A stretch of DNA of 63,540 nt, filler included, from Reclinomonas americana ATCC 50394 (taxonomy: Eukaryota), in the NCBI GenBank assembly GCA_048213135.1. It is 9 parts of 3 records of this genome, joined end to end, with 100 filler letters (N's around TTAATTAATTAA, not from the genome) between each part and the next. Parts side by side here need not be neighbours in the genome. Positions count along the whole stretch, not along the records: positions 39,175 to 49,455 come from PS015129.1; 8 more parts are not named here. The stretch is one strand, 5' to 3'. This document shows, in pieces, positions 2,137 through 48,426 of the stretch. The notes under the pieces are model-generated. The model was not told where the DNA came from, made no database searches, and saw nothing but the letters and a program-made list of their open reading frames with translations. Within the stretch, counting starts at the first letter, position 1. Every line of letters begins with the position of its first letter. Made by a program: the position numbers and the translations under genes.

Positions 2137-3677
2137 AGACTGGCTACCGACTACCCGCAGGCCATGTACTACCCGCTGCGCATCTCTGAGGAGGCCATCA
2201 ACGCCACACGACACTGTTCGCGCGAGGTGAAGACCGCCTTTGCCGAGATGATGGAACTGACGGAGATGCCGCAGCTGGCCATTTTCACCCGTGGCCTCTC
2301 GCGCCTTGACAACCCCGAGCTGAGGTGAGACATTCGCTGGTGAAGGCGAATGTGGTGGCAGCTCACGCAACATGGCGCAGGTGGAAGCACATCTGGGTAC
2401 CGGCCATTACCGACTGCCTGGCAAATGGCAAGGGAGCAGAACAGGTGACGATGGAGACGCACTCTGCTCATGTCCACTCCTCTCCCCTCCTCATCGCATG
2501 TTTTCGCATCAGTTGCGCCGTATTTTCGACGAGGCGCGCCGCGACTGCCTTGTGCGCGATGGAGAGGATCCGGGGTTCATCAACGACCAGTTTGCCGAAA
2601 AGATCGGAGTCGAGATTCTGCAGGTGACTATTGATTCGCCAAGATTGCTGGTGGTTGTCGTCGCTGACCGATGGTATATATGTATATGTAAGACCACTGG
2701 CGATCACGGACAACGACTGAAAGCCGATACTGCACGGCGTGTGGCGGAGATCTTTGAGCATGTGGATCCGGCGGCACGGGCGCTCTTTATCGATCCGTCC
2801 GGTCGTCTCGGCCCATTGTATCAGGGTTGCGTGTATTTCTCTTGGCGAATGAATCTGTGTGTTCCTTGCATAACTCTGGGAGGGCGCGTGCGCAGGTCAC
2901 CTCAAGATGCGCGACTTTAGTCACGCGCTGGCCAAGTACCAGGCGCGCATCGGTGAGCCGACAGTCGACATGCCTGGCCAGTACACTGGCGACGCGGCGC
3001 CGCAGCCCGACGAACTCGTCAAGGTGTGCGGGAACTGGCGAGTATGGAGAAAGGCTGCACTCTCTCACTGCTGTGCGTGTGAGGGCAGATTATATGCTTC
3101 GGGCAGTTTGTGCGACTGCTGCCGTCCATTCGCAAGCCGAAGCGCATCACGGTGTTTGGCAGTGATCAGCGCGAGTATCGGTTCCTTGTCAAGGGTGGAG
3201 AGGATTTGAGGCAGGATCAGCGGATCAGTGAGGTGGGTAGGAGGGGGAAGGGGTTAGGAGGGGGAGGAGGTTGAAGGGGGAAAAGGAGGGGAGGGAGGGA
3301 GAAGGAGGAAAAGGGACAAGTAGGGTGTAGATGGAGAGGGAGGATACGTAGGGAAGGGAGTTTATCTGGTTTGTTGTGTTGTGTTGTTGTTGTTGCTGGT
3401 GCTGTGGTGAAGAGCAGAAAAATGTGCGAAGACCCTTAGAGATATTTATCTTTGTCAGTACAGGCCCTGATGTTGATATTCATTAGTTGCTATTATTGTT
3501 GATATTGTGACAAGGAGAGCAGATGACCTAAGAGAAACACGTTTGCTGTCGATGTTGTTCCTGTATTTTGTACGTTGCTGCTGTTGTTCATGGTGGTTGT
3601 AATGGAGTGAGCTGAAGAAGAGATTTAAGTGTCGATGTAGGTTTGATGTGCCATGCTTGTTAATAGTCGTCGTCGGC

Positions 3678-3757
<80 letters not shown>

Positions 3758-5666
3758 AGTCGTCGTCGCCTCTCTGTGACTTGCTCTCAGTGCATGTGTT
3801 TCGTTGTCATCGCTGCTGTTGTCCTTGTTGACAGCGACGTTGTCCACTCTCTGGACTGCCTTTCAGTGATATTCATGTTGCTGCTGTGCCACCCGGCTGA
3901 CTTGATCGCTCACGCAGTTGTTCCGCACGATGAACGCCATCTACAATCGAGTGGCCGACACGCAGAAGCGCGGCGCCAGCATCATGTGCTACCAGATCAT
4001 TCCCATGTCGACGGTTTGTCAGCAGTGCTCCAATTGATATGGTTTCCACGCGCGTGCGTGACCACCACCCTTTTCCATTTGATGCACAGCGTGTGGGCAT
4101 CATTGAGTGGGTGGACAACACAGAACCCATCCAGTCGCTGATGGAGTCGATCAAGGGTGTTCGCGGTTGCGTAACCCCCCGCCGCAAAATCGCGCACACC
4201 GCGCACTGCTCTCACTGCTGCGCAGAGGCAACCGGTCTGGCCAATCAGGTCGACCAGAAGGAGATGGGCAACGCTGGTCCCGCCTACATGTCCAAGGCGC
4301 TGCCGTCGTTCGACGCCACCATGCTGACGAAGCACCAGACAGAGCGCGACTTCTATCCTCGGTTTGTTGGGGGGGCTCCTGCAGATGCACATGTGAGGCG
4401 CGCGCTAAACGCATGCACCACGCAGCGACATTATTGTGCAAGCCTTGCGACAGCGGTCGTCATCCCCCGAGGCCTTTTTCGTGTTGCGACAGCGATTCAT
4501 CGATTCGCTGGCCGTGCTGACCATCTCTGGGTATGTGGTCGGTTTGGGTGATCGCCATTTGGACAACTTGCTGGTGCACACCAAGGTCAGTTTTGCCAGC
4601 GCGTTGTGATACAATCAAAACAAATCGGTTGATGCTGATTTGGTGGTCGACGCTAGAGTGCGCGACTGATGCCCATCGACTTTGGGCATGCTTTCGGATC
4701 GGCAACAGAGGTGTTGCCGGTGCCGGAGATTGTCCCGGTTCGCCTGACCAACCAGTTTGTGCGGTACGTGGTGGTGAAGGGCGATTGTTTTTACTGCGCA
4801 ATCTTGTCACCAATTCTCTCTCTTTTTGCAAACACAATCAGTGTGTGCGAACCGGTGGGCATTGATGGCACTCTCAAACCGATCATGGTGCGCTGCATGC
4901 AAGCGCTGCGCGCCCACCGCCACGTGCTGCTGCGCATTCTGGAACTCTTTGTTCAGGAGCCGCTGCTCGATTGGCTGCAGCATGCGGAGAAGGTTCTGCC
5001 GCGAAAGACTCTCGTTTGTTGCCAGCATGGAGCTCACATCCTTCGTGCAGGTTCATCAACGGCGCATCGCAGCAGTCAAGGACGCTGGAGGCCGAGCGGA
5101 GGAGCAAGCAGAGGATGAGGTGGAGGATGAGGAGGACATGGATGTGGATGACCGACCGGAAAGGTTTGAAGGGAGATGAGAGGGAGAGAGGGAGAGAGGG
5201 ACAGGGAAAGTGTCGGAGCGAAAGTCTGATTGGGGAGAGTCTGACGTCACCGACTCATTGCAGCGGAGCGGCGTGGTTTGCGCGTCGGCGAGTGGAGATT
5301 GCGCGACGAAAGCTGCTGCTCTACAATCCCGCTCACTTGTTGATGGAGGAAGTTGAGGCCAATCGTCACGTGCAGGCGTGGAGCCGCAACGTGACCAAGA
5401 CGGCGGCCGCCAGACTCAAGCATCACAACATTATCGAGGCCTACCGCGATGTGCGTATATTTATGGCGATGTACCGATTCGGCACACTGACTGGTGTGTG
5501 ACGTCTCTCGCAGCTGGTGCTGGGCGAGCGAAGTGGCAACTCGGACAGGAGTCGCTTCCCGCAAGTGTGTCACTCGGTCGAGGAGCAAGTGCACTGCCTC
5601 GTCGATCTGGCCACGGATCCACTCGTGCTGGGTCGCATGTGGGGCGGCTGGCGCGCGTGGTTGTAG
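2137..5666 (+). CDS. PRKDC: DNA-dependent protein kinase catalytic subunit, C-terminal part (end of FAT, PIKK kinase, FATC); multi-exon, 5' truncated
   Basis: Spliced peptides DYPQAMYYP, MPGQYTG, SIRKPKRITVFGSDQREYRFLVKGGEDLRQDQRI, GLGDRHLDN, IDFGHAFGSATEVLPVPEIVPVRLT and the FATC end SVEEQVHCLVDLATDPLVLGRMWGGWRAWL*. TAG at 5664-5666. Confidence 0.95.
3680..3756. repeat. Compound (GCT)n(GTT)n microsatellite in a PRKDC intron
   Basis: Directly visible trinucleotide runs. Confidence 0.95.
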
Positions 5667-30878: not shown

Positions 30879-33310
30879 TTACGGCGCAGCACCTTCGGGC
30901 AGCTGCTGCTGCTGTTGTGCGCCAAGATGCCGAACGTCCTGCTTACATACGGGGCATTCGGGCTTGCGCAAGAACCACTCGTCGATGCAAGCGGTGTGGA
31001 ACATGTGGATGCACGGGAGCATGCGCACTTGGTCTTTTGACAGGTATGGCTCCAGGCAAATGGGGCACCTGTGTGTTACGGGAAAGTAAGGAAAAACGAA
31101 TTTGCAGTTGGACTCAGACATGATGGTGCGGATTACGCAACTCTCGACGATCGGCGTCCAGGTGCTCCACATCTTCCAGCTCAAAAGTGGCCGTGTAATT
31201 GTCGGCCAAAGAGCGTGCGTTGGCAGCTGCAACGCGCTGCACGAGAGAGGGGTTAGCAACCATGCAGAGAGAGACAGATGGCATGAATCTTGCTGCTCTC
31301 TGCCACTCACCGGATCCGCTTGCTGCATCATTTGCATCTGGTGCAAAAAGAATCTCCTCATTACATCGGAATAGTCCACTTGCTGAGGTGCACCGTGATA
31401 GCGGTAGTGTTGCACAAACGGAGCTCCAGCAATGCCCACGTACGGCTGTCCAGGCACCGCCGGCTGTACTCCTGCAATCCCCGCATAGGGTTGCGCAGGC
31501 GCCGCTTGCGGCACATGTTGTTGTTGTTGTTGCTGATGCTGGTACTGCTGCGGCTGCAACGGCACCGGATGATAGTACGGCAATTGGTGCGCCGCCAAAT
31601 GTTGCTGGTGGTACGGAGCAGCGACTGCTGCCGCATTCTGTGCATAAACGGCGGCATAGGCCTCGGGCGCGGGTGGCTCCCACTGCGTTGTGTGCGTGTT
31701 GTGGTCGACGTAGTATACTCTGCGCGGTGGATGCAGGTAAGCGATGAGAGGGAGGGAGGGAGGGAGAAAGAGGGCGGCGGAATGTGACAAACCTGCCGTG
31801 CGGATCGTACGCTTGTGTCCAACCGGGTGGCAACTGCAGCACCGGCGCCGAAACCACTTGCTGCACCTCGATTACAGACGCTGGTGATACTGGCGGAGGT
31901 CGTTGTTGCAGCTGCGGCTGTGGCTGCTGGTGATATTGTTGTTGTGGTGGTGCCTGGCGGCTCTGCGAGCGCTGTTGGACGTGTGCGTGCCGGTGTTGTT
32001 GTGCCACGGCGGGTACCGGGTGTGGAGAGGCGGCCAGGAATGAGCCAGGACCGCCAGGTGACCGACCAGAGTTTGAACCGTGAATGATGCCACCCGAGAC
32101 AATGGCCGGGGGCGCGGCGGCGGTTGGTCTGGAGGGGGAGGAAAAGGGAGAGATGTGAGAAACAAGCGAGATCCTCCGAGATGCGAGCGGGAGAACATTG
32201 CGCGTGGAAAGAGGAGGTGTAGTGGTGGTGCGCGTGCAAGCTGGTGGGGGTGCCGTTGGCACGCACGAGAGAAACAGAGGGTCACGACAAACTACTGCCG
32301 CAAACTGATACGGCAGCCCGCATGAAACACGGCAAATATGAGATGCAACAGGAATGCACGACGAGAGGGAATCAACGACCAGAATCACTGCCGTCTGATA
32401 CACAAGCCGCAGAGAGGAGAGAGAGGGGAAGAGAGAGGGGGGGAGGGGGCTAGAGAAGAGAGAGCGACACGCGGAACGAATGAAACTGGACAATTGTGGA
32501 CGACGAGTGGCGTCGCGAAGCTCAGCGAGAAATGTGCAAAAACGCTTCTGTGCACGTGCTGCGATGACAAGTGGCTACAGAACACTGCGCTCGAACAGCA
32601 ACAGCATACACAGCTCGCGGAACGACGAGAACCGGAAAGGAACACGCACAAAACGAAACGGCGGTACGGACAACAAAACACACAGCAACACCTGACAGAC
32701 AAACAGACACAGACACGCACATGCGCGCGTACATAGAGCGTGGAGTGGGAAGAAAGAACGAAAGAGAAAGAGAGAGGGAGAGAGACGTGCATCGAGACAG
32801 CGAGTGCGAGAAATACAAGGCGCAGACACAGCTGTTCCTTCCTCTCTCTCTCCCAATCTTATTTCCAACTCTCCCTCTCACAGACACACTCATAAACAAA
32901 AGCGCGACACAGCACGACGACGGGACACGCACACGCACAGACACTCCGAGCAATGTTCACATTACACCCCCGACACGTCATCCATTTGCTCTCACTCACC
33001 TCTGCTCCTGCCTCCGTCGCCCCCCAGAAAAGCAACACTGCCGTCTCCTCTCCTCTCCTCCTGTTGCTTGCCCTCCTCCTCCACTGCTGCTGCTGACGAG
33101 CGACGAGAGCGAGTCTCGCGCGGCCGCAGACGACGCACACACTGCTCGCGCTGTTGACTGCGGTTGCTGTGGCGGTTGTTGTTGTTGTTGTTGTACAACG
33201 GGAAGGTCCCAATGCGTAGTCTGTGTGTTGTGATCGACATAGTATGGCAATCCGGTGCCCTCTTGCACGCGCTCTTCCCATCCCTCTGGCAGTTGTTGCG
33301 GTCGACTCAT
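30879..33310 (-). CDS. Two-WW-domain, Q/P-rich protein with C-terminal RING-H2 finger (putative E3 ligase)
   Basis: WW1 LPEGWEERVQEGTGLPYYVDHNTQTTHWDLP. WW2 LPPGWTQAYDPHGR/VYYVDHNTHTTQWEPP. RING-H2 CPICLEPY...LPCIHMFHTACIDEWFLRKPECPVCK. Confidence 0.88.
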
Positions 33311-33933
33311 TTGCTCATTGATTCACTCCACATGCACACACCCAGCGGCTAATATGATTATGTGGATAGCGTTTGGTGTGCGAGAGGTGCGCGTGCGCGT
33401 GTGAGAGAAGTGATCGCGAGTGAATGTGAGGACTTTACGCGTGAAATTTCGCGTGTCTGCGACTCCGGACTCGAGCTTTTTCCTGAAGTTTGCATTTTGC
33501 TTTCCGCCCTTGCCACTTGCAAAAGGAATGCGTCGCTGTGGTGCCGATCGTATCGCAGCGAAAAGTACGCGCGTCCGACGTTTGAATTCGAGCTTGCATC
33601 GGAGCGCAGCGACGTCGAGCCCGCGGCGGCCACTCGCTGGGCTGTGCTCAGTGAGGATTCTGTACATGGAGTTCGTTTCTCGGATGTTGCTGTGCGTGCG
33701 CGAATCCGGAGGGGATCCGTTCCGCGGAGAGACAGCGGAGGTTTCGGCTCGACGTACGCGTCGCGATCGACGTCAATGCATTCTTCCGATCGCACGGCAG
33801 CGAGTTGTGCGCTGCCACGGTCCCCAGTGTAACGACCGCGCATGTGCAGAAGACGCGCACGGAGCTGAGGACACGGGAAAGCACGCGCGAGACACGAATT
33901 CGAGCAATTCGAGGCTGCGGGACACGATTGCGA

Positions 33934-39000: not shown

Positions 39001-39255
39001 CACTTAGGACTATAGAGAACATCTCAGTCTTATCTTTCCCTCCCTGCGCTGACCCCTTCCTTCGCATGCGCAGANNNNNNNNNNNNNNNNNNNNNNNNNN
39101 NNNNNNNNNNNNNNNNNNTTAATTAATTAANNNNNNNNNNNNNNNNNNNNNNNNNNNNNNNNNNNNNNNNNNNNTTCTGTGACCACGCGCAAGATCTCAG
39201 TCGTCTGAACGACTCACGACGCGCAAGTGCCACCACCACCCATCTCGCACTCACC

Positions 39256-41211
39256 GATCCATGGTGGCCGGTGCGTGGCCGCTGGTCGGCGCCATCTCCT
39301 GTCGGGCAGCGGGCGATATAGAGCGCGAGCGCGACGGCTCAAGCTCCTCCTCTTCGTCGGCCATCATGCGGCGCTGCAGGCACAAGTCAGCCTACGCACA
39401 ATCTCACACCTCAATTCCAACTCTTTTCTATGCCTACACACCGACGGCGGAGCACCACGTGCCCTCGGCTGCTGTGGTGGCGGACCCACGTGGATACGAC
39501 GATCGGACGCCGCTGGCGCGGCACTGACCAGCGCCGGGGACGATGGGCGACCAGCAACAGACACTGCTCGAGTGGGCGACGACGGCCGAGCACCTGCATT
39601 GTGCCAGGTAAGACGGCGGTCACGCCGGAGCGCTCCTCAAACAAAAAACTCACCCGTGGGACTTTCGGGTGTGGCAGAGCGTGCGCGCTCCACAGCGCCT
39701 TGCTGCTGCTGGTGCTGATGATGAGAGTCCTCCACTGCCACGTTGACAGAGGTGTGGCCGTGCTCGCCAGTCGACGCGCCGTGCTCTCCCTCCTCCTCCT
39801 CGCCCTCACCGTCCGCTTCGACCTTGGGGCGGCGCAGCGGCTGGCGGCTCAAACGGAAGTAGTGCACAATGATGCAGAGTGCGATGAACGCCAACAGCGA
39901 CGTGACGCCAGCCAGGAAGTACACACTGCGCAAAAAATGGAGTGAGACAAGAGGCTCCCGCACAATCCAGAGCCTCCTTGCAGCAGCACACACGCACATG
40001 AACATGATGATGGTCGCCGTGTCCATGGGTGACGGTGGCATGAAGACGGCCACACCCACAATCGGCACACCCAAATGGTAGATGGTGATCAGCAGTGTGG
40101 TAATGAGCGCGAAAATGGTGAAGCCGAACGAGCGCAGCGTCACGCACGCCGTGCCGACCAGCAGCGACAAAATGTACGCCGGTCCCACATAAATCAAGTA
40201 AAAGCTCTGCGCAGGCGAAAGTAACGTCAGCGCACACACTCTCGCACGCACACTCACCCATGCTGACAGCAGACGCAACTCCATAAAACAAGTCATTGAC
40301 GGCCGTGAATGCAACCACCGGGTTCTTCAGGCGATACACGTAATCGGGCCAGCCGGCAATGGCCGTCAGCGCCAACAGCTGCAGCGCCATGGCCACCTTG
40401 TAGAAACGCCATGATCGTGTCAGTTCCCGCGTCGATGCCTTGATGGCCTCGGCGTGCTCCGCCACCAGCGTGGCATCGTCCACCTCCTGCTGGTACTCGC
40501 CGCCGGCAACGGGTGAGTTCCTCCCATCTCGTGGACTGGACGGCTGCCCAATCTGTGGTGTGTCACAAAAGATATGAGCTTCACGTGCTCGATACTGTCG
40601 CACGCACACAGACACTCACCAGCGGCGACAGTGGTCGCCCGGCACGCTCATCCTGCAGCGTATTGTGCACATCACGCGTCAACGTCTCCAGCATCTGCTC
40701 CAGCACCAGCGGCTGGCTGACGCTCAGCTCCGGCTGCGCTTGCACTGCTTCTTGCAATCGCTTCGTAAACATCGCTCGCCGCCCATCGTGCCTCATGTGC
40801 GGCAACGAGCGCTCCAACCACGTGACATAGGCCGCCGATCGCTGCCTTGACGCGTCGTGAGCCGCATGCGACGCCGCTGTGGTCGGCGACGGTGGTGCCG
40901 GTGACGGAGTGCGTTGACGAGGTGCGGGTGACGGAGAACCGGCGCCAATCACTGCAGTGGTAGACAGAGAGTCAGACTCACGAGATGGACGTCAAACGAC
41001 AGCGATCAGGAGAAGAGGAGGAGAGACGCAGCATCTCAGCAAGCCGGAAGCCGGCGTCGCCGCTGCTCACACGCAACAAGAAAACAACACGCACACAAAG
41101 ACCGACATCAGAGGACACATGCACCAAAGTAGAGAGGAGCAAACATAAGAACGCAACAATGGCGACGAGTGGGCGACGGGGCACGACCGACGGGATCATA
41201 CGGCGCATCAT
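39256..41211 (-). CDS. Hypothetical multi-pass membrane protein with N-terminal signal/anchor (3' truncated)
   Basis: MMRRMIPSVVPRRPLVAIVAFLCLLLSTLVHVSSD, then several hydrophobic segments (FYLIYVGPAYILSLLVG, FTIFALITTLLITIYHLGVPIVGVAVF, VYFLAGVTSLLAFIALCIIVHYF) in GT-AG exons. Confidence 0.6.
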
Positions 41212-41917
41212 CGTTGCCACTGGCGGCCGACAATCGCCCTCCAACTGCCTCACCATATGCCAACGAAGTCAGCGGAGGCAATCGCTGGACAGAGTTGTTG
41301 CGTTCGGCGTCCCAGCGATCCCTGCGAGGAGGAGAAGCAGCGAGTGAGTGCCTCGAGGCTCTCTCAACTGCGAACTGACGAGCAGACGATGTGCGCGCGC
41401 TCTCTCAGGACGCAACTCTTCTGTATCAGGACCACGTGAAGGCATCCGCGCACGAGGAACTCGACGAGCCGACGGTCGCTGAGATGAGCAGAGAGGGTGA
41501 GACAAAATGTCCGATGTTGAAACAGAAGATCGAAATCAACAAGAAACGCACTTGCACACACACGCACACACACACACACACACACGCACACACACACACA
41601 CAAGTGCGCGTACAGTGACACATGCACCAAGCTACACGTGCGCAGTGCGTGTGTCCTCACCTCAGCCATTATCGATATCTCTTCTCCGCTGCGGTCACAC
41701 ACTGCTCCTCACAGAACACAGATCCACACTTGCACAGATGAACACTCGGTCTTTCTGTCGCACGCACACGCTCTCTCACTCTCGCAGATCCTTCGTTGTG
41801 TGTGGTTCGTCGTTGGGACAGAAGAGAGTGACTCACGCGCCCCGATTGTCCGCGAAAAGTTCTCACTATCCGCTGTGTTTCCCCGCGCGCGCGTACACAC
41901 ACCCGCTTTGTTATTTG

Positions 41918-43018
41918 ATGGCTGCTTCGACCAACCGCAAGTTCCTCTTCACCTCAGAGTGTTGCGTCTTCTCTTCATTCTTTCCTTGTCTTGCAGTTTG
42001 GTTTTTCGCTCATTGAGCTTACCGTCTCGCTACATACACACGCAGCGGTCTCTGAGGGCCACCCTGGTGAGCTCCGTGTTTGTCGTGTGTTTATGTTTGT
42101 GTGTCACAGTGTCAACTGATATTCCGCGCGCGTGCTACCAACTGCTGCAGACAAGCTTTGCGATCAGGTTTGTTGACACATACGCTGTCGCCTCTCTCTC
42201 TCTCTCCTTCCTTCTCTCTGTCTCCTTCCCTCTTGCTGTCGCCCCAAATGCACGTGTCGTGTCGCGCACCGTCTGCGTGTCGTGAGGGGGCGATGTGCAT
42301 GCACATCGCTTTCCGCACCTTTTGCCTCTCCCACGCTCCGCCCCTCTCCACCCACTCCCTTCCACCACTCTATCACCTGCACACATGCCTTGTGCACTGG
42401 TCGTCCGCATTCCGGCGTGTGATCTTCCTCCTCTTCCTCACTGAGTGTTTGCACATTTCGGGCCATGTCGCACCCCTCTCACTCTGCTTGTGACAGGTTT
42501 CCGACGCCGTGCTCGACGCTGTGCTGACGCAAGATCCCTTTGGCCGCGTGGCTTGCGGTTCGTATGTTTCTCGCGCAATTGCCCCGCCTTTACAATCGTG
42601 ATTGCTCAATTGGTGGAGCTTTTGCATGATCTTCCGCACACAGAGTCGGCCTCCAAGACTGGGTGCGTGCCACGCACGTAGACATGCACCTGCGCAGCTG
42701 TGTTGCTCACGTAATCCTTTTTGTTCTCTTCTCTTCTCTCCAGCATGATCCTGGTGTTCGGCGAGGTGCGTTTCCACCCCACTGCAGCAGTCGGAGCGAC
42801 TGTTCTTACACGCGCGAGCGCAGATCAGCTTCGCCGGCCACTTGGACTGGCAGGAGGTGGTGCGCGGTGCCATCCGCGACATTGGCTACGATGACGGCGC
42901 CAAGGGCTTCGACTACAAGTCGTGCAACGTGCTGGTGGCGGTGGAGCAGCAGTCGCGCGAGATTGCCGAGGCCGTGCACGTCAACAAGTCGCTGGAGGAG
43001 ACCGGCGCCGGCGATCAG
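41918..43018 (+). CDS. MAT: S-adenosylmethionine synthetase, N-terminal part (truncated at gap)
   Basis: Spliced [27 protein letters not shown]...RVACESASKTGMILVFGEI...[17 protein letters not shown]...EQQSREIA...GAGDQ. Confidence 0.95.
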
Positions 43019-43631
43019 GTTGGTGGACGGAGAATGCCAAAAGAGAAAAGTATTCGTCTGTTTTTTTCTCAGACAAGTGAGTNNNNNNNNNNNNNNNNNN
43101 NNGGCCGTCTGCAGCGTAAAGTTCTTCTTGATGCGGATCGCACTGTACCTCGACGCACCTGCAACGTGTGGTCACAACACCAAGACTGCTGCAACAACTT
43201 GCCCACATCACAAACCCATTGTCGGCTGCGGTGCCAGCGCCACTGCGGTCGACGACTCAGGCTCCTCCTCTGGTTCCTCGAGCGTGATAATGTCCGAGTC
43301 GACGACAGTCGCCACTGCCGAGGTGGACCACTCCAGCGCCTGCACAGACTCGCACAATGAGCACGCAATGCCACCTCTGCCTCACTTGGTGCACACAGAC
43401 CTGCATCTCCAACGCCGACACTGTGCGCACACTCTGCGTCGACGCGCTCTCCGCTGCTCTCTCTGGCCTCCTTCCCGACTTCCACAGGAGCCATCGCCAC
43501 AGTCGTGATAGTCGCTCCAGCAGCCACCTCCAAAGTGACTGCACAAGTGGCAGCATGCATGCGGTGATAGCGAAGTGCGTCGTCGTTGGTTCATCGATAA
43601 TCTACTCCACTTCCTTCAAGTGGGTCCGGCG

Positions 43632-45858
43632 ATGCGCCGCCGCGTCGCGTTGCTGCTCGTTGTTGTGGTGGCGGTGCTGCTGCTCACCGAAAGCGTGGTG
43701 GCGGAGGAAAAAGAAGACGATGACGAGCTGGCATTGGCGCGCGAGGCAAAAATCGATGGCATGCAGTACACACTGAAGCACGAAAGCACCTCACAGTCGC
43801 TCATGTTTGGCACGCACACGTCTGTGCGAGCTGCTGGTGTGTCTCACGTGAGAGAGAAATCGATCTGTTTTTCTCTCTTCTCACTCTCTGTGTGTGCAGT
43901 CCGCGAACACATTCGCAGTCGCGGCATTGGTGATGATGTGACAGAGGAGCTGGTGACGGCTGCGCGCGACACACTGCGCACAATGGGTCTCTACGCACCA
44001 CCGGTAAGTTGCATCGCGATCTTGCTTTCACATTGGTTTTCACTCAACCATTTGTCTGCACACTGCCAGAGGAGGAAAGTCGGGCTGTTGGTGGCTGGCC
44101 GTGTACACGTGCTGCGAGTGGCTCGCGATGGAAGCGATTGTGCCGCAGTCGGTGAGTCGCCAGCACGTTGCTGGCCATCAAAGTCGTTTCGTGTTGCTGA
44201 CACATTGCCAGCCAAGCGGTTCGCTCACGAGCAGCATCTGGAGGAGGAATACGTGCCGGCCATGGAGCTGGCCCTGCGGCTGCAGCTGAAACACAATATG
44301 CCAGAGGTTTGGTGGAGTTGCTCTTTTTTTTTTTTCGTGCACTCATGCCACGTGCTGCAGCCGACAGTCGCTCCCGCTGGCATGGAGCACCTGCGCAAGG
44401 GATTCATGGTCGGCTTTCTCACCTCGTCGCTGGCGATTGTCGGCCACGTCCACTCGAGCATTAAGATCTTGTACTTTACGGTGATGCCCGGGTGCTCGTG
44501 GGTGTACCGCTTTGGTGAGTTGTTCTTGGGAGTGTCGCATCTGCACCAGCACTGAAAATGTTGTGAGCAGCACCCAACATTGCAAAGCCGAGTATTCGCT
44601 TCGAGTACGTCCTGCTGCACGATGCAAGGGAGGAGATCATCGCCGATGTGAACAGTGTGGCCAAGTATATTGCCGAGCATCCGGCGGTGAGTGGGAACTA
44701 GGTGTTGGCCATTGTGACACCACGCTCATTTGTGCACCCCACGCAGGAATTTGCTTCACACTTTGTGGTTCGTGCACAGAGATACTGTTCTCTTGTTCAC
44801 ATAACAGGTACTCATCTTTTGCTTCTCCACAGCCGCCACTGCCGAATCCCTCCGCCTCGCTGGCCAACCGCATTCAGCCGCCGTTGCCACTCTCCCCTCG
44901 CACCGAGTGGTTTCCATTCAAAGCGGAGGACCCGCCGCGTGCTTCGTATCGCTCCTCTGACGAGGAGCAGCGCGTCCGCCGTGTTACACCAACACCGTGC
45001 AAGATCATCGAGGACAAGACTCGTGACGAGCCAACGCAACCTCCCGAGTGTGAGCTGTGTGGGTCGCAGTTTGTGCGCCAGCAACCGCGACCACCACTCG
45101 GTCGTCGCGTGCACATTGTGATCGGAGTGTTCTCCATGGACACGGCGCGTGAGAGTCGCGATGTGGCTCGCTCGACCTGGATGCGGTACCCCAACGTGTA
45201 CCACCCGCAAAACAATCCCGACGGCACCGTACAGGTGGTTTTCCTGCTGGGTCGACCCAATCGATGTGCCGCCGAGCCGCTGCTGCGTGAGGAGGGTGCT
45301 GCTCATGGCGATCTGTTCTTCTTGGACATTCGCGAGAATGTGGCCGACGGCAAGATGCGCGACTGGCTGGTGGCCGCCGCCGACTACTACGCCAACACCA
45401 CCGTGCGCTACGTCAGCAAGAGTGACGGTGACATTTTTCTGCGCACAGTGGAACTCGAGCGGGAGCTCTCGCACCTACCGCGGGAGCGCCTGCTGTGGGG
45501 TCCCGGCCACACTGCCTATCGCAACCAGATGATCTACGACTTCACCATTGGTTTCACGATGATCATGTCGTTCGACTTGGTGCAATGGGTTCGCGACGCA
45601 CCGCTGCCGACGGCTGAGTACTTTGGGATCGACGACTGCGCGTTTGCGTGGTGGCTGGCTGCCGCCGACGTACCGGTGCACTTTGTGCCCGACATTCGCT
45701 TTCACGACGACAGCACCCACATGCGTGGCTACTTTGCCGAGCCGGTCACCGACGAGAGTATCTGCGTGCATCGGGTGGTCTCCCGAGCAACGGCTGAGAG
45801 CCTTCTGGCGAGATTTCCGCTGGCGGAGGCCGTCAGCAGCGACATTGACGAGAGATAA
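43632..45858 (+). CDS. GT31 (beta-1,3-galactosyltransferase-like) glycosyltransferase with long N-terminal extension and signal peptide
   Basis: Signal MRRRVALLLVVVVAVLLLTESVVA. GT31 motifs RDVARSTW, VVFLLG, EEGAAHGDLFFLDIREN, YVSKSDGDIF, MSFDLV and IDDCAFAWWL. Confidence 0.78.
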
Positions 45859-45982
45859 GGCTGCTCATTGTGGAGGCAATGCTCCAACGGCGAGACATTG
45901 TATAGTTTGTGAAGTCACGTGTCATGCACGACAGTCGGTCCCACAAGGCCGCAATTGCACTTCGTTTGTCGACTCTCCCGCG

Positions 45983-48009
45983 ATGGCGTCCAGCGGACTC
46001 GGCTTTGAGAATCGCGCCGTCGGCGTTCTCCTCGGCGTCATGGTGACTCACTGCACAGCAAGCACACACTCACACTCAGCGTGTTGTCTGACGCTGTTTT
46101 TTCCTTGCCTCCTCTCAAACAAGGTCGGCGATGTGCTGGGTGCCGCCGTGGAGGGTGAATCTGCACAGGCCATCGCTCGTCGGTTCCCCGACGGAGTGCG
46201 CGACTTTGTGCCTTGCAAGCACATGGGATTGCCGGATTTGCCCGAGAGATTTGGTGAGAGGAGTGAGAGCACTTCCCACTGTCCCCTCTCTGCTCACGTC
46301 TCCTCTCTCTCTTCGTGGCACGCAGGCATGTACACAGACGACACAAATGCGACTCTCGCTCTCGCCACCAGCTTGGTGAAGCGGCGTGAGCTGGACGTGC
46401 AAGACGTGGCGGAGGAGCACGCGCGCTTTGGGGCACTGGAGCCTGTGCGTGGCTGCCCGAGCAGCATGATGGCACTGATGCAGCTGATTCGTGACGGTGT
46501 GCCGGCGACGGAGACGGTGAGTCTCTTGCCGAGTGTGAGCAGGAGCAGCAGCAGCACCGGCGGCCTTACATAACCATCATCACTGCAGGGCACCAAGATC
46601 TTCGCTGACGGGTCGTGGGCCAATGGCGGCGCCATGCGGATCGCTCCTGTGGCCATTGCCTTCCGCAACACGTCGTTTCGCGTTCTCCGTGAGGCTGTCC
46701 GGCAGGCGCTGCTATTCTCTCACGTGCATCCCGAAGGTCTCTGTGTGTACCTCTTGTCTTTGTGCATCACCCTGTTCCCCTTCTCATTGGCGTCTCATTC
46801 ACAGCCGTGGACGGCGCCTACATTCTCTGCCGTGCTGTGGTCATGCTGTTTGGCGAGCACGCTTTCGAGTTCTCCCCGATCTCGTTCTTCTCGCGTCTGC
46901 GGCAGGGCACGGAGACGGAGGCGCTCTGTGGCCGACTGGATACCATAGAGGTGTTGTTGGAGCAGGGCGACAAGGCGGGCATGGCAGACGAGGAGGTGTA
47001 TGGCATTCTTGGCTCGGAGTTTCAGATTCGCACGGCCGAGGCCGTGTCGTGTGCACTGTGGATGTTTTTGCGCCACTGGGCGACGCCCGAGGAGTGCCTC
47101 ATTCGGTGCGTGAGTCTCGGCGGTGACGCAGACACGATTGCGTGCATGTGCGGTGCGCTCCTCGGTGCACTGCACGGGTATCACTGGATCCCGGCACGCT
47201 GGCTCGACAACCTCGGTGCGCAGCAAAAACAGAACGCACAGCATGTGAACGCGCCACCATGAGTTCTCACTCTTCTTTCTTCTCGGCGTGCGTGCAGAGA
47301 ATGGAGAACGCGGTCGCGACCATGTCATCGAGCTGGCTCGCCAGCTGGCCTCGCTCGACTTGACGTCTGTTCCGCGCCTCGAGTCGACACCACCCGGTGC
47401 ACTGCCGCCGCCTCCGCCTCCCCCCGTTTCTGCCGAGCTGCGTGAGCGTTTGCAGACTGTGGAGCGCCTGTTGTCGGACGTGCTGCTGGCGCAGCAGGCT
47501 GCTGTTGGCATGGATGTGCCTCCAGACTTGGTGCGTGCTCTCATGACAACTGATCGAGAGAGAAGGTATCTCACTCGCGATGTTGCTTGCAGCTCATGGC
47601 AGAACTGCTGCTGAGCCCGGATTATGCCGACGTGTATCGGCTGGCTTTCGATATTCTGTGTGAAAATGCAGACGGCATGTTGCCGAGCGTCGCCGCCGCT
47701 GCGCACGAGCAGTGCTTCTTCCCGCCGACTCTCTTCCCGGGCATCGGCATGTGGAAGCGGCTCCTGGAGGAGAAGGAGCACGCTGATCCCACGCGGCGCC
47801 TGTCGCGTGAGGAGTGGAACGAGTGCCTGCAGTATGCCATCGCCCTGGCCACCGATTCACCAATGGCCGCGCAACCGGTGCTCACCGTGTCGGCGTCGCC
47901 GGCAGCAGCAGCAGCAGCGGCTGCCGCAGCGGCTGCACCAGGTGCCGATCAGTGGATATCGCCACTCATTCGCGAGTTCCACGAGTTGCAGAGCCCACCG
48001 CGGAGATAA
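45983..48009 (+). CDS. ADP-ribosylglycohydrolase (ARH3/DraG family) with C-terminal DCN1-like domain
   Basis: VGDVLGAAVEG, YTDDT, SWANGGAMRIAPV, SHVHP and GGDADTIACMCGALLGA. An in-frame final exon (47593-48009) resembles the DCN1 PONY domain. Confidence 0.85.
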
Positions 48010-48132
48010 TAACAACGGAGGAGGGTGGATGGTGAAGTGAAACGTCGGATCGCGTTTCACAGCGAGTTGTTGCTGTTGCCACAAAGCAGACGTTGAGTTG
48101 TCAGTCCTGTTATATGTCGTCCGCTCGTCGTC

Positions 48133-48395
48133 ATGTTCGTGTCGCGATTACGCAACACCGTCGCCTCGGCGATCGGTGGTGCAAGTGGTGCTGTTCTGGG
48201 CGCTGCCATGCGCGGATCGTGGCGAAGACCAGTGCTCACCACAGTCGGTGTGGGTGCAGTTGTTGCGCAATCATTCCTCCTTGTGTCCAGATGCACTGTC
48301 ACAACACTCTCACCTTCGCGTATGTGCGCTGTGTGGTCTCGTCTTGACAGGTGCTGCTTGGTGGGCTGACGATCAGTGCGGCCTCGTTTCCACTG

Positions 48396-48426
<31 letters not shown>

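Follow-up and report, generated by a model that had tools for sequence, protein, structure and literature searches.

The gene described here occupies positions 45983–48009 (+) of a 63,540-nucleotide stretch of DNA from Reclinomonas americana ATCC 50394 (GenBank assembly GCA_048213135.1), which joins nine parts of three genome records and is referred to, at its full length, as the window; the part that contains the gene (39,175–49,455) comes from record PS015129.1. Read from the ATG at 45983 to the TAA stop codon at 48007–48009, the gene consists of seven exons that comprise 529 codons plus the stop, with a spliced length of 1590 nucleotides (nt) and no internal stop codons. Each of its six introns is of the GT-AG type, is 62–82 nt long and has a CTNAC/T-like site, read by eye, 5' of the acceptor. 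The predicted product is an ADP-ribosylhydrolase (ARH) of the ARH3 type carrying a C-terminal extension, the last exon of which resembles one half of PONY, the cullin-binding domain of DCN1. The surrounding scaffold is gene-dense, intron-rich and eukaryotic; the GC content is ~0.59–0.63 across the gene and the stop codon of the upstream neighbour lies only 124 nt before the ATG. All features of the gene given below are on the plus strand (+) and in window coordinates.

The hydrolase is encoded by the first five exons and the start of the sixth. Exon 1 (45983–46042) provides codons 1–20 and the start of the ARH domain, and is collinear with the nearest homologue (P0001) across the exon 1/2 junction. 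The in-frame pieces of exons 2–5 match the Pfam family ADP_ribosyl_GH (PF03747), together spanning profile positions 8–287 of 287, and nothing else notable. Exon 2 (46124–46253), which harbors the GDxLGxxxE motif, matches profile positions 8–44 with an E-value of 0.0034 and 17.5 bits, below the family cut-off of 26.2 bits, while exons 3 (46326–46516; 28.2 bits), 4 (46589–46736; 27.6 bits) and 5 (46805–47215; 76.3 bits) lie above it. The TDDT metal motif in exon 3 aligns with DraG and ARH3 chains as well as with the homologues, exon 4 contributes the part of the ARH core with the GxxxNGxxMR segment, as placed by the homologue alignment, and exon 5 encodes the C-terminal half of the domain with its GGDADT motif (profile positions 162–287). 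Among solved structures, exon 5 is closest to human ARH3 chains (E ~3e-8), and its DxDT residues align with theirs.

A word-indexed search of longer proteins with exon 5 returned seven homologues of 309–384 residues, each with PF03747 as its sole precomputed Pfam domain. Five of the homologues (P0001–P0004 and P0007) were aligned with the spliced model, P0005 and P0006 being omitted as the weakest and most partial matches, and the model retains GDxLGxxxE, TDDT and GGDADT. The Glu of GDxLGxxxE, TDDT and DxDT are the metal-binding and catalytic motifs of such enzymes. The hydrolase domain is complete, as had been claimed in a preliminary description of the locus that named a complete ARH3/DraG domain with intact metal motifs, and it looks catalytically competent from its sequence. 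Introns 1–5 are confirmed by homology, because the model is collinear with the five homologues through the first five exon junctions. The alignment with P0001, which shares 48% identity over exon 5, continues through the exon 5/6 junction, and P0001 stops a few residues beyond the last ARH helix, encoded by the first part of exon 6 (47298–47362). The protein therefore shares with ARH3 (ADPRS/ADPRHL2)-type PF03747 enzymes the whole catalytic domain with its three motifs, and has ARH3 chains as its closest solved structures, but differs from the five aligned homologues, which stop at or near the last ARH helix, in running ~194 residues past 47362 as an extension without counterpart in them.

This extension begins within exon 6 (47298–47530), the middle of which encodes a Pro-rich linker with a run of eight Pro (47363–47431) that is absent from the five aligned ARH homologues. 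The end of exon 6 (47432–47530) encodes 33 residues that have no Pfam match and a positive codon score in frame. A sub-threshold match of exon 6 to the Pfam family CATASP (E 0.011) was set aside as chance. Following the predicted intron 6 (47531–47592; 62 nt, phase 0), exon 7 (47593–48009) encodes 138 residues, of which residues 1–88 (47593–47856) form a core of four helices that resembles the PONY C-terminal lobe (C-lobe). A low-complexity insertion of ~30 Ala-rich residues, with a poly-Ala run, lies in the loop before the last helix (47857–47952), and a putative last PONY helix (W..LIREFHEL) and the C-terminus complete the protein (47953–48006). The poly-Ala tract itself (47893–47940) is built from GCA/GCG/GCT repeats and its length could differ between strains. 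The gene coordinates in the preliminary description, including the position and phase of the 62-nt intron and of the stop codon that would be met if it were read through, were all correct.

A profile search of the exon-7 peptide names Cullin_binding (PF03556), as the preliminary description had proposed in calling the tail PONY-like, and names it as the sole family at E ≤ 10 (E 8.3e-4, 20.2 bits, query residues 11–88 against profile positions 19–96 of 118). The 91-residue core of exon 7 alone gave an E-value of 3.7e-4, and the scores of three versions of the query were 20.2, 20.8 and 21.3 bits. When cut into shorter pieces (exon-7 residues 1–51, 45–91 and 110–138, and the last 36 residues of exon 6), the tail matched no Pfam family at E ≤ 10. 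To represent the PONY family we searched metagenome contigs for a single degenerate motif that lies at the end of the domain, which yielded 116 loci; every open reading frame (ORF) in which 117 or more codons precede this motif was a true Cullin_binding protein (45/45, E 1e-23 to 1e-40), and 31 sequences, hereafter the PONY rows, were left after removing those >80% identical. With a hidden Markov model (HMM) built from the 31 rows, the exon-7 ORF scored 18.0 bits and came first of the 702 window ORFs of at least 50 codons, ahead of a runner-up at 3.3 bits. When the exon-7 peptide was shuffled 5000 times, its real score of 17.0 bits was never attained (best shuffle 10.9; reversed sequence −2.1). 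Alignment of exon 7 with the 31-row alignment by hhalign gave a probability of 90.8% and an E-value of 1.2e-6 over 83 columns. In the language-model Atlas, the 30 nearest clusters were Cullin_binding without exception (30/30; top score 0.92, with 192/256 features shared), and when PF03556 clusters were left aside the best named neighbour was Caleosin, at 0.76 and 97 features. By these sequence statistics, the exon-7 tail is similar to the PONY C-lobe beyond chance.

To define how much of the domain is present, we built a full-length PONY profile of 219 positions from 25 full domains. This profile matches the spliced protein only at positions 112–192 of 219, which correspond to the C-lobe, and no PONY N-terminal lobe (N-lobe) was found with it in exon 6, including its 33-residue end, or elsewhere in the spliced protein. 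Because the matched part opens with residue 2 of exon 7, the exon border coincides with the lobe border. What the preliminary description called a DCN1-like PONY domain therefore corresponds to the C-lobe, which is what Pfam calls Cullin_binding, and not the full domain. Conserved PONY columns kept in exon 7 are the Tyr of the F-Y-x-F first helix, one Ala, two Trp and the final F-x-E. Other columns have changed: Glu at exon-7 residue 39 stands where a Trp is nearly invariant in PONY, Glu at residue 73 (47809–47811) replaces the Asp of the R-D-x-W motif, which is Asp in 31/31 PONY rows, and Arg at residue 127 (47971–47973) replaces an Asp of the final I-D-D-F, the following Val being His. The Ala-rich insertion is absent from all 31 PONY rows. 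When AlphaFold was given exon 7 atop the 31 PONY rows, it returned a model with a predicted local distance difference test score (pLDDT) of 81.4 and a predicted template modelling score (pTM) of 0.70, in which the insertion is disordered (pLDDT 44–65) and the putative last helix packs as the last helix of DCN1 does. This guided model superposes on human DCN1 ~148–250 and yeast Dcn1 155–269 with Z-scores of 11–12.7, the top match having a root mean square deviation (rmsd) of 2.2 Å for 103 residues; the next-best structures were calmodulin-type EF-hand pairs (Z 6.5).

The substituted columns bear on how PONY contacts cullins. In PMC4886823, PONY is described as binding cullins via an invariant DAD patch (D226, A253 and D259 in yeast Dcn1), and mutants of this patch as losing all cullin interactors. 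We took three columns of our alignment (D, A and D) to be this patch because they are invariant and have the six-residue spacing from A to the second D; the A and second D columns are fixed by the search pattern and the first D column is not. On this assignment, the patch in exon 7 would read E at the first position, A (MAFFT) or Q (with the helix read as continuous) at the second and R at the last, against D, A and D in PONY. The view in the preliminary description that the acidic patch is altered is borne out by these alignments. In PONY domains, the pocket that receives the acetylated N-terminus of UBC12 is made up mostly by the N-lobe. Because the N-lobe is absent and the invariant acidic cullin-contact residue is now Arg, the tail would be unfit as a scaffold-type NEDD8 co-E3, and it probably no longer acts as one. 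In comparison with DCN1 and DCNL1–5 (DCUN1D1–5), the likeness consists of the C-lobe alignment to PF03556, the retained conserved residues and the superposition of the guided model. The differences are that the N-lobe and a UBA or other N-terminal DCN-type region are missing here, that the patch reads E, ambiguous and R, that the Trp is Glu, that the loop holds the Ala-rich insertion, that the score is below the Pfam cut-off, and that the half-PONY is placed C-terminally on an enzyme whereas the domain of DCN1 is the core of a small scaffold protein.

We therefore consider, with a probability of roughly 60%, that the locus is one gene for an ARH3-type hydrolase with a lineage-specific tail that has been re-used as a helical docking or regulatory module. 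The extension would consist of the Pro-rich linker, the 33-residue unmatched stretch and a very divergent PONY C-lobe on its own phase-0 exon; the last of these would truly descend from the PONY C-lobe, in eroded form, and would have been acquired on that exon. Such a module may place or control the hydrolase, whose substrates would be ADP-ribosylated proteins or small ADP-ribose esters. Between the two functions offered in the preliminary description, the evidence speaks more for a repurposed interaction module than for a connection with cullin neddylation.

It is possible, if rather unlikely, that the tail still binds cullins. It would then dock the hydrolase on a cullin or a cullin-like winged-helix domain, where ADP-ribose would be erased near cullin-RING ligases, and ADP-ribose signalling would in this way be coupled to the ligases, while the tail as such would not promote neddylation. 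The lobe that has been retained is the one that carries the DAD patch, as judged from PMC4886823 and from our own alignment, and its first patch residue is still acidic (Glu). There are also five metagenome ORFs, described below, that join WWE, a poly-ADP-ribose reader, to a complete PONY. An RBX1-type gene with a zf-rbx1 RING-H2 match (ORF at 54648–55091 (−), E 5.4e-6) is located ~6.6 kb downstream in window coordinates, an arrangement that has little weight in a eukaryote. However, the last patch Asp has become Arg, a reversal of charge at a column that is Asp in 31/31 rows; while this invariance was set by the search pattern, PMC4886823 also calls the residue invariant and, as noted above, reports that patch mutants lose all cullin binding.

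Several results weigh against the interpretation of the tail as a re-used PONY lobe and of the locus as one gene. The PF03556 scores of 20.2–21.3 bits are under the Pfam gathering cut-off of 27.9. As a control we searched 261 stop-to-stop ORFs from all six frames of the window, comprising all 111 N-free ORFs of at least 150 codons and 150 of the 159 of 100–149 codons (the window holds 4814 N bases, and ORFs touching them were excluded). Besides matches to real genes, these gave one probably spurious match, to New_glue, with an E-value of 2.6e-4. E-values near 1e-4 to 1e-3 can therefore be spurious in the GC-rich DNA of the window and, since a control match of similar strength arose, the Pfam match of exon 7 is by itself suggestive only. 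The 31 PONY rows were all chosen via one C-terminal motif and are a biased sample of the family. With a profile made from 20 columns that cover the last PONY helix, the exon-7 ORF was not among the 13 top-scoring window ORFs; hmmalign leaves this helix unaligned while MAFFT places IREFHEL opposite the PONY end, I/L-D-D/E-F-V-E-W/Y, which makes the last helix a plausible match only. AlphaFold run on the single sequence of exon 7 gave a pLDDT of 49, and Foldseek found no structure at E ≤ 0.001 and no DCN1 with that model. The guided model was driven by the PONY rows and indicates compatibility with the fold, not independent proof of it, and a Foldseek search with it ranked DCN1 first at an E-value of only 0.34. 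Intron 6 is a prediction from splice signals and coding statistics. Finally, the proposed loss of DCN1 function is read from individual residues, of which the Glu at the first patch position is a conservative change and the middle one is ambiguous. The New_glue match noted above lies at 3458–3862 (−), is sub-threshold at 21.1 bits and is probably compositional.

These results leave room for the likeness to PONY to be something other than homology, with the tail a fast-evolving, lineage-specific helical or EF-hand-like extension in which a PONY-like spacing of aromatic residues arose by chance. We regard this as unlikely. In addition to the sub-threshold Pfam score and the control match of like strength, it is favored by an identity to the PONY rows of only 14–28% and by an Atlas recognition of 2074, which is less than the 2300 reached by 91 in 100 known-family proteins. 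A phmmer search with the tail also found no match at E ≤ 1e-3 among 1.84 billion representative proteins and only chance-level rows, without DCN1, among Protein Data Bank (PDB) sequences; this is expected because the likeness amounts to only ~20 bits. A word-indexed protein search with the tail, at longer and near lengths, gave no match. Against chance resemblance stand the agreement of Pfam, our own HMM, hhalign and the language-model features, which all name Cullin_binding and no other family, and the absence of EF-hand families from the Pfam results at E ≤ 10. Not one of the shuffles reached the score, and the match begins at the first residues of exon 7 and spans four consecutive helices in order. 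A megablast comparison of the gene with phage records gave no match and was uninformative.

It is also quite unlikely that exon 7 is outside the hydrolase protein, either because intron 6 is kept, in which case the hydrolase would end at an in-frame TGA at 47612–47614, or because a separate small gene starts from the ATG at 47596. In favor of this, protein database searches with the tail revealed no homologue that spans the intron-6 junction, the ATG directly follows the first codon of exon 7 and local genes are packed as closely as ~124 nt apart. However, intron 6 (GTGCGT...CTCAC...CAG) has a donor of the GTGCG type, a CTCAC branch-like site, a pyrimidine run and a CAG acceptor, and its length of 62 nt is near the 68–82 nt of the five homology-confirmed introns. 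We also calculated codon-usage log-odds, for which 1048 codons of Pfam-supported segments from other parts of the window served as the training set. Read in the frame of the gene model, exon 6 scored +0.34 and residues 1–91 of exon 7 +0.48 bits per codon, as compared to +0.24 to +0.43 bits per codon for the ARH exons, while the other two frames of exons 6 and 7 were negative. The poly-Ala part of exon 7 scored near zero (−0.14) and is uninformative. Intron 6 was negative in all three frames (3/3) and so scores as non-coding, with coding flanks on both sides in a continuous phase-0 frame. Moreover, a separate gene would leave no intergenic space and would overlap the read-through stop of the hydrolase. 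An antisense ORF of 353 codons over exons 5–7 (46798–47856 (−)) has no Pfam match and a negative codon score, and was rejected as a gene. Downstream of the gene there is a (GT)n dinucleotide run at 48388–48425 (+), inside or beside the next small ORF.

Although ARH and PONY are each well known on their own, the fusion of an ARH domain with a half-PONY is, in our assessment, real and apparently undescribed. PF03556 was found in 0/7 of the ARH homologues and PF03747 in 0/45 of the PONY-bearing metagenome ORFs, and a literature search found no paper describing an ARH–DCN1 or ARH–cullin-binding fusion, although an unpublished database entry may exist; the statement in the preliminary description that no such architecture had been described is consistent with these results. 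The metagenome and metatranscriptome data did contain five ORFs that combine WWE with a complete Cullin_binding/PONY domain, the latter scoring 83–93 bits with its D, A and D columns intact. WWE is above the Pfam cut-off in three of them (L052:83–1102(+), L053:310–1323(−) and L059:194–1336(−)) and just under it in two (L018:98–1204(−) and L038:96–1166(+)). A literature search found no description of WWE-PONY proteins. They are similar to the protein studied here in that an ADP-ribose-related module and a DCN1-type domain share one polypeptide, but they differ in that the module is a reader (WWE) and not an eraser, in that WWE is N-terminal and in that the PONY is strong and complete.

Very improbable, in our estimate, is a wider scheme in which some protists wire ADP-ribose signalling to cullin activation, such that WWE-PONY proteins would read poly-ADP-ribose and bring neddylation to cullins while the ARH-half-PONY would erase the ADP-ribose signal, dock on the same cullin surface via a compensating charge swap and compete with DCN1; if this were true, ligase activation that depends on ADP-ribose would have a built-in off-switch in the ARH-half-PONY.

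Three further observations were made in passing. A metagenome ORF (L075:833–1831(−)) encodes the end of Cullin_binding (profile positions 80–118) followed by a UCH/USP deubiquitinase, and may be either an unusual architecture or merged exons of neighbouring genes. In human 13q34, as listed in Table 2 of PMC2815550, ADPRHL1 and DCUN1D2 are adjacent, ~2.3 kb apart, with CUL4A nearby; that an ARH-family gene neighbours a DCN1-family gene there is probably coincidence, though a curious one in view of the present fusion. Elsewhere in the window, a WW-domain gene with a C-terminal RING-H2 is present at 30882–33322 (−) (zf-RING_2 E 2.9e-13; WW E 2e-12).

As a single orphan gene, the case has moderate weight. 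If the fusion is expressed, it would indicate that the rear lobe of PONY can be separated from the rest of the domain and put to use as a module of its own, and it would provide a natural case for asking what this lobe binds once the residues of the classical cullin contact have been replaced. Taken with the WWE-PONY proteins, it hints that an ADP-ribose enzyme or reader is joined repeatedly to a DCN1-type domain in microbial eukaryotes, with possible cross-talk between the two modifications.

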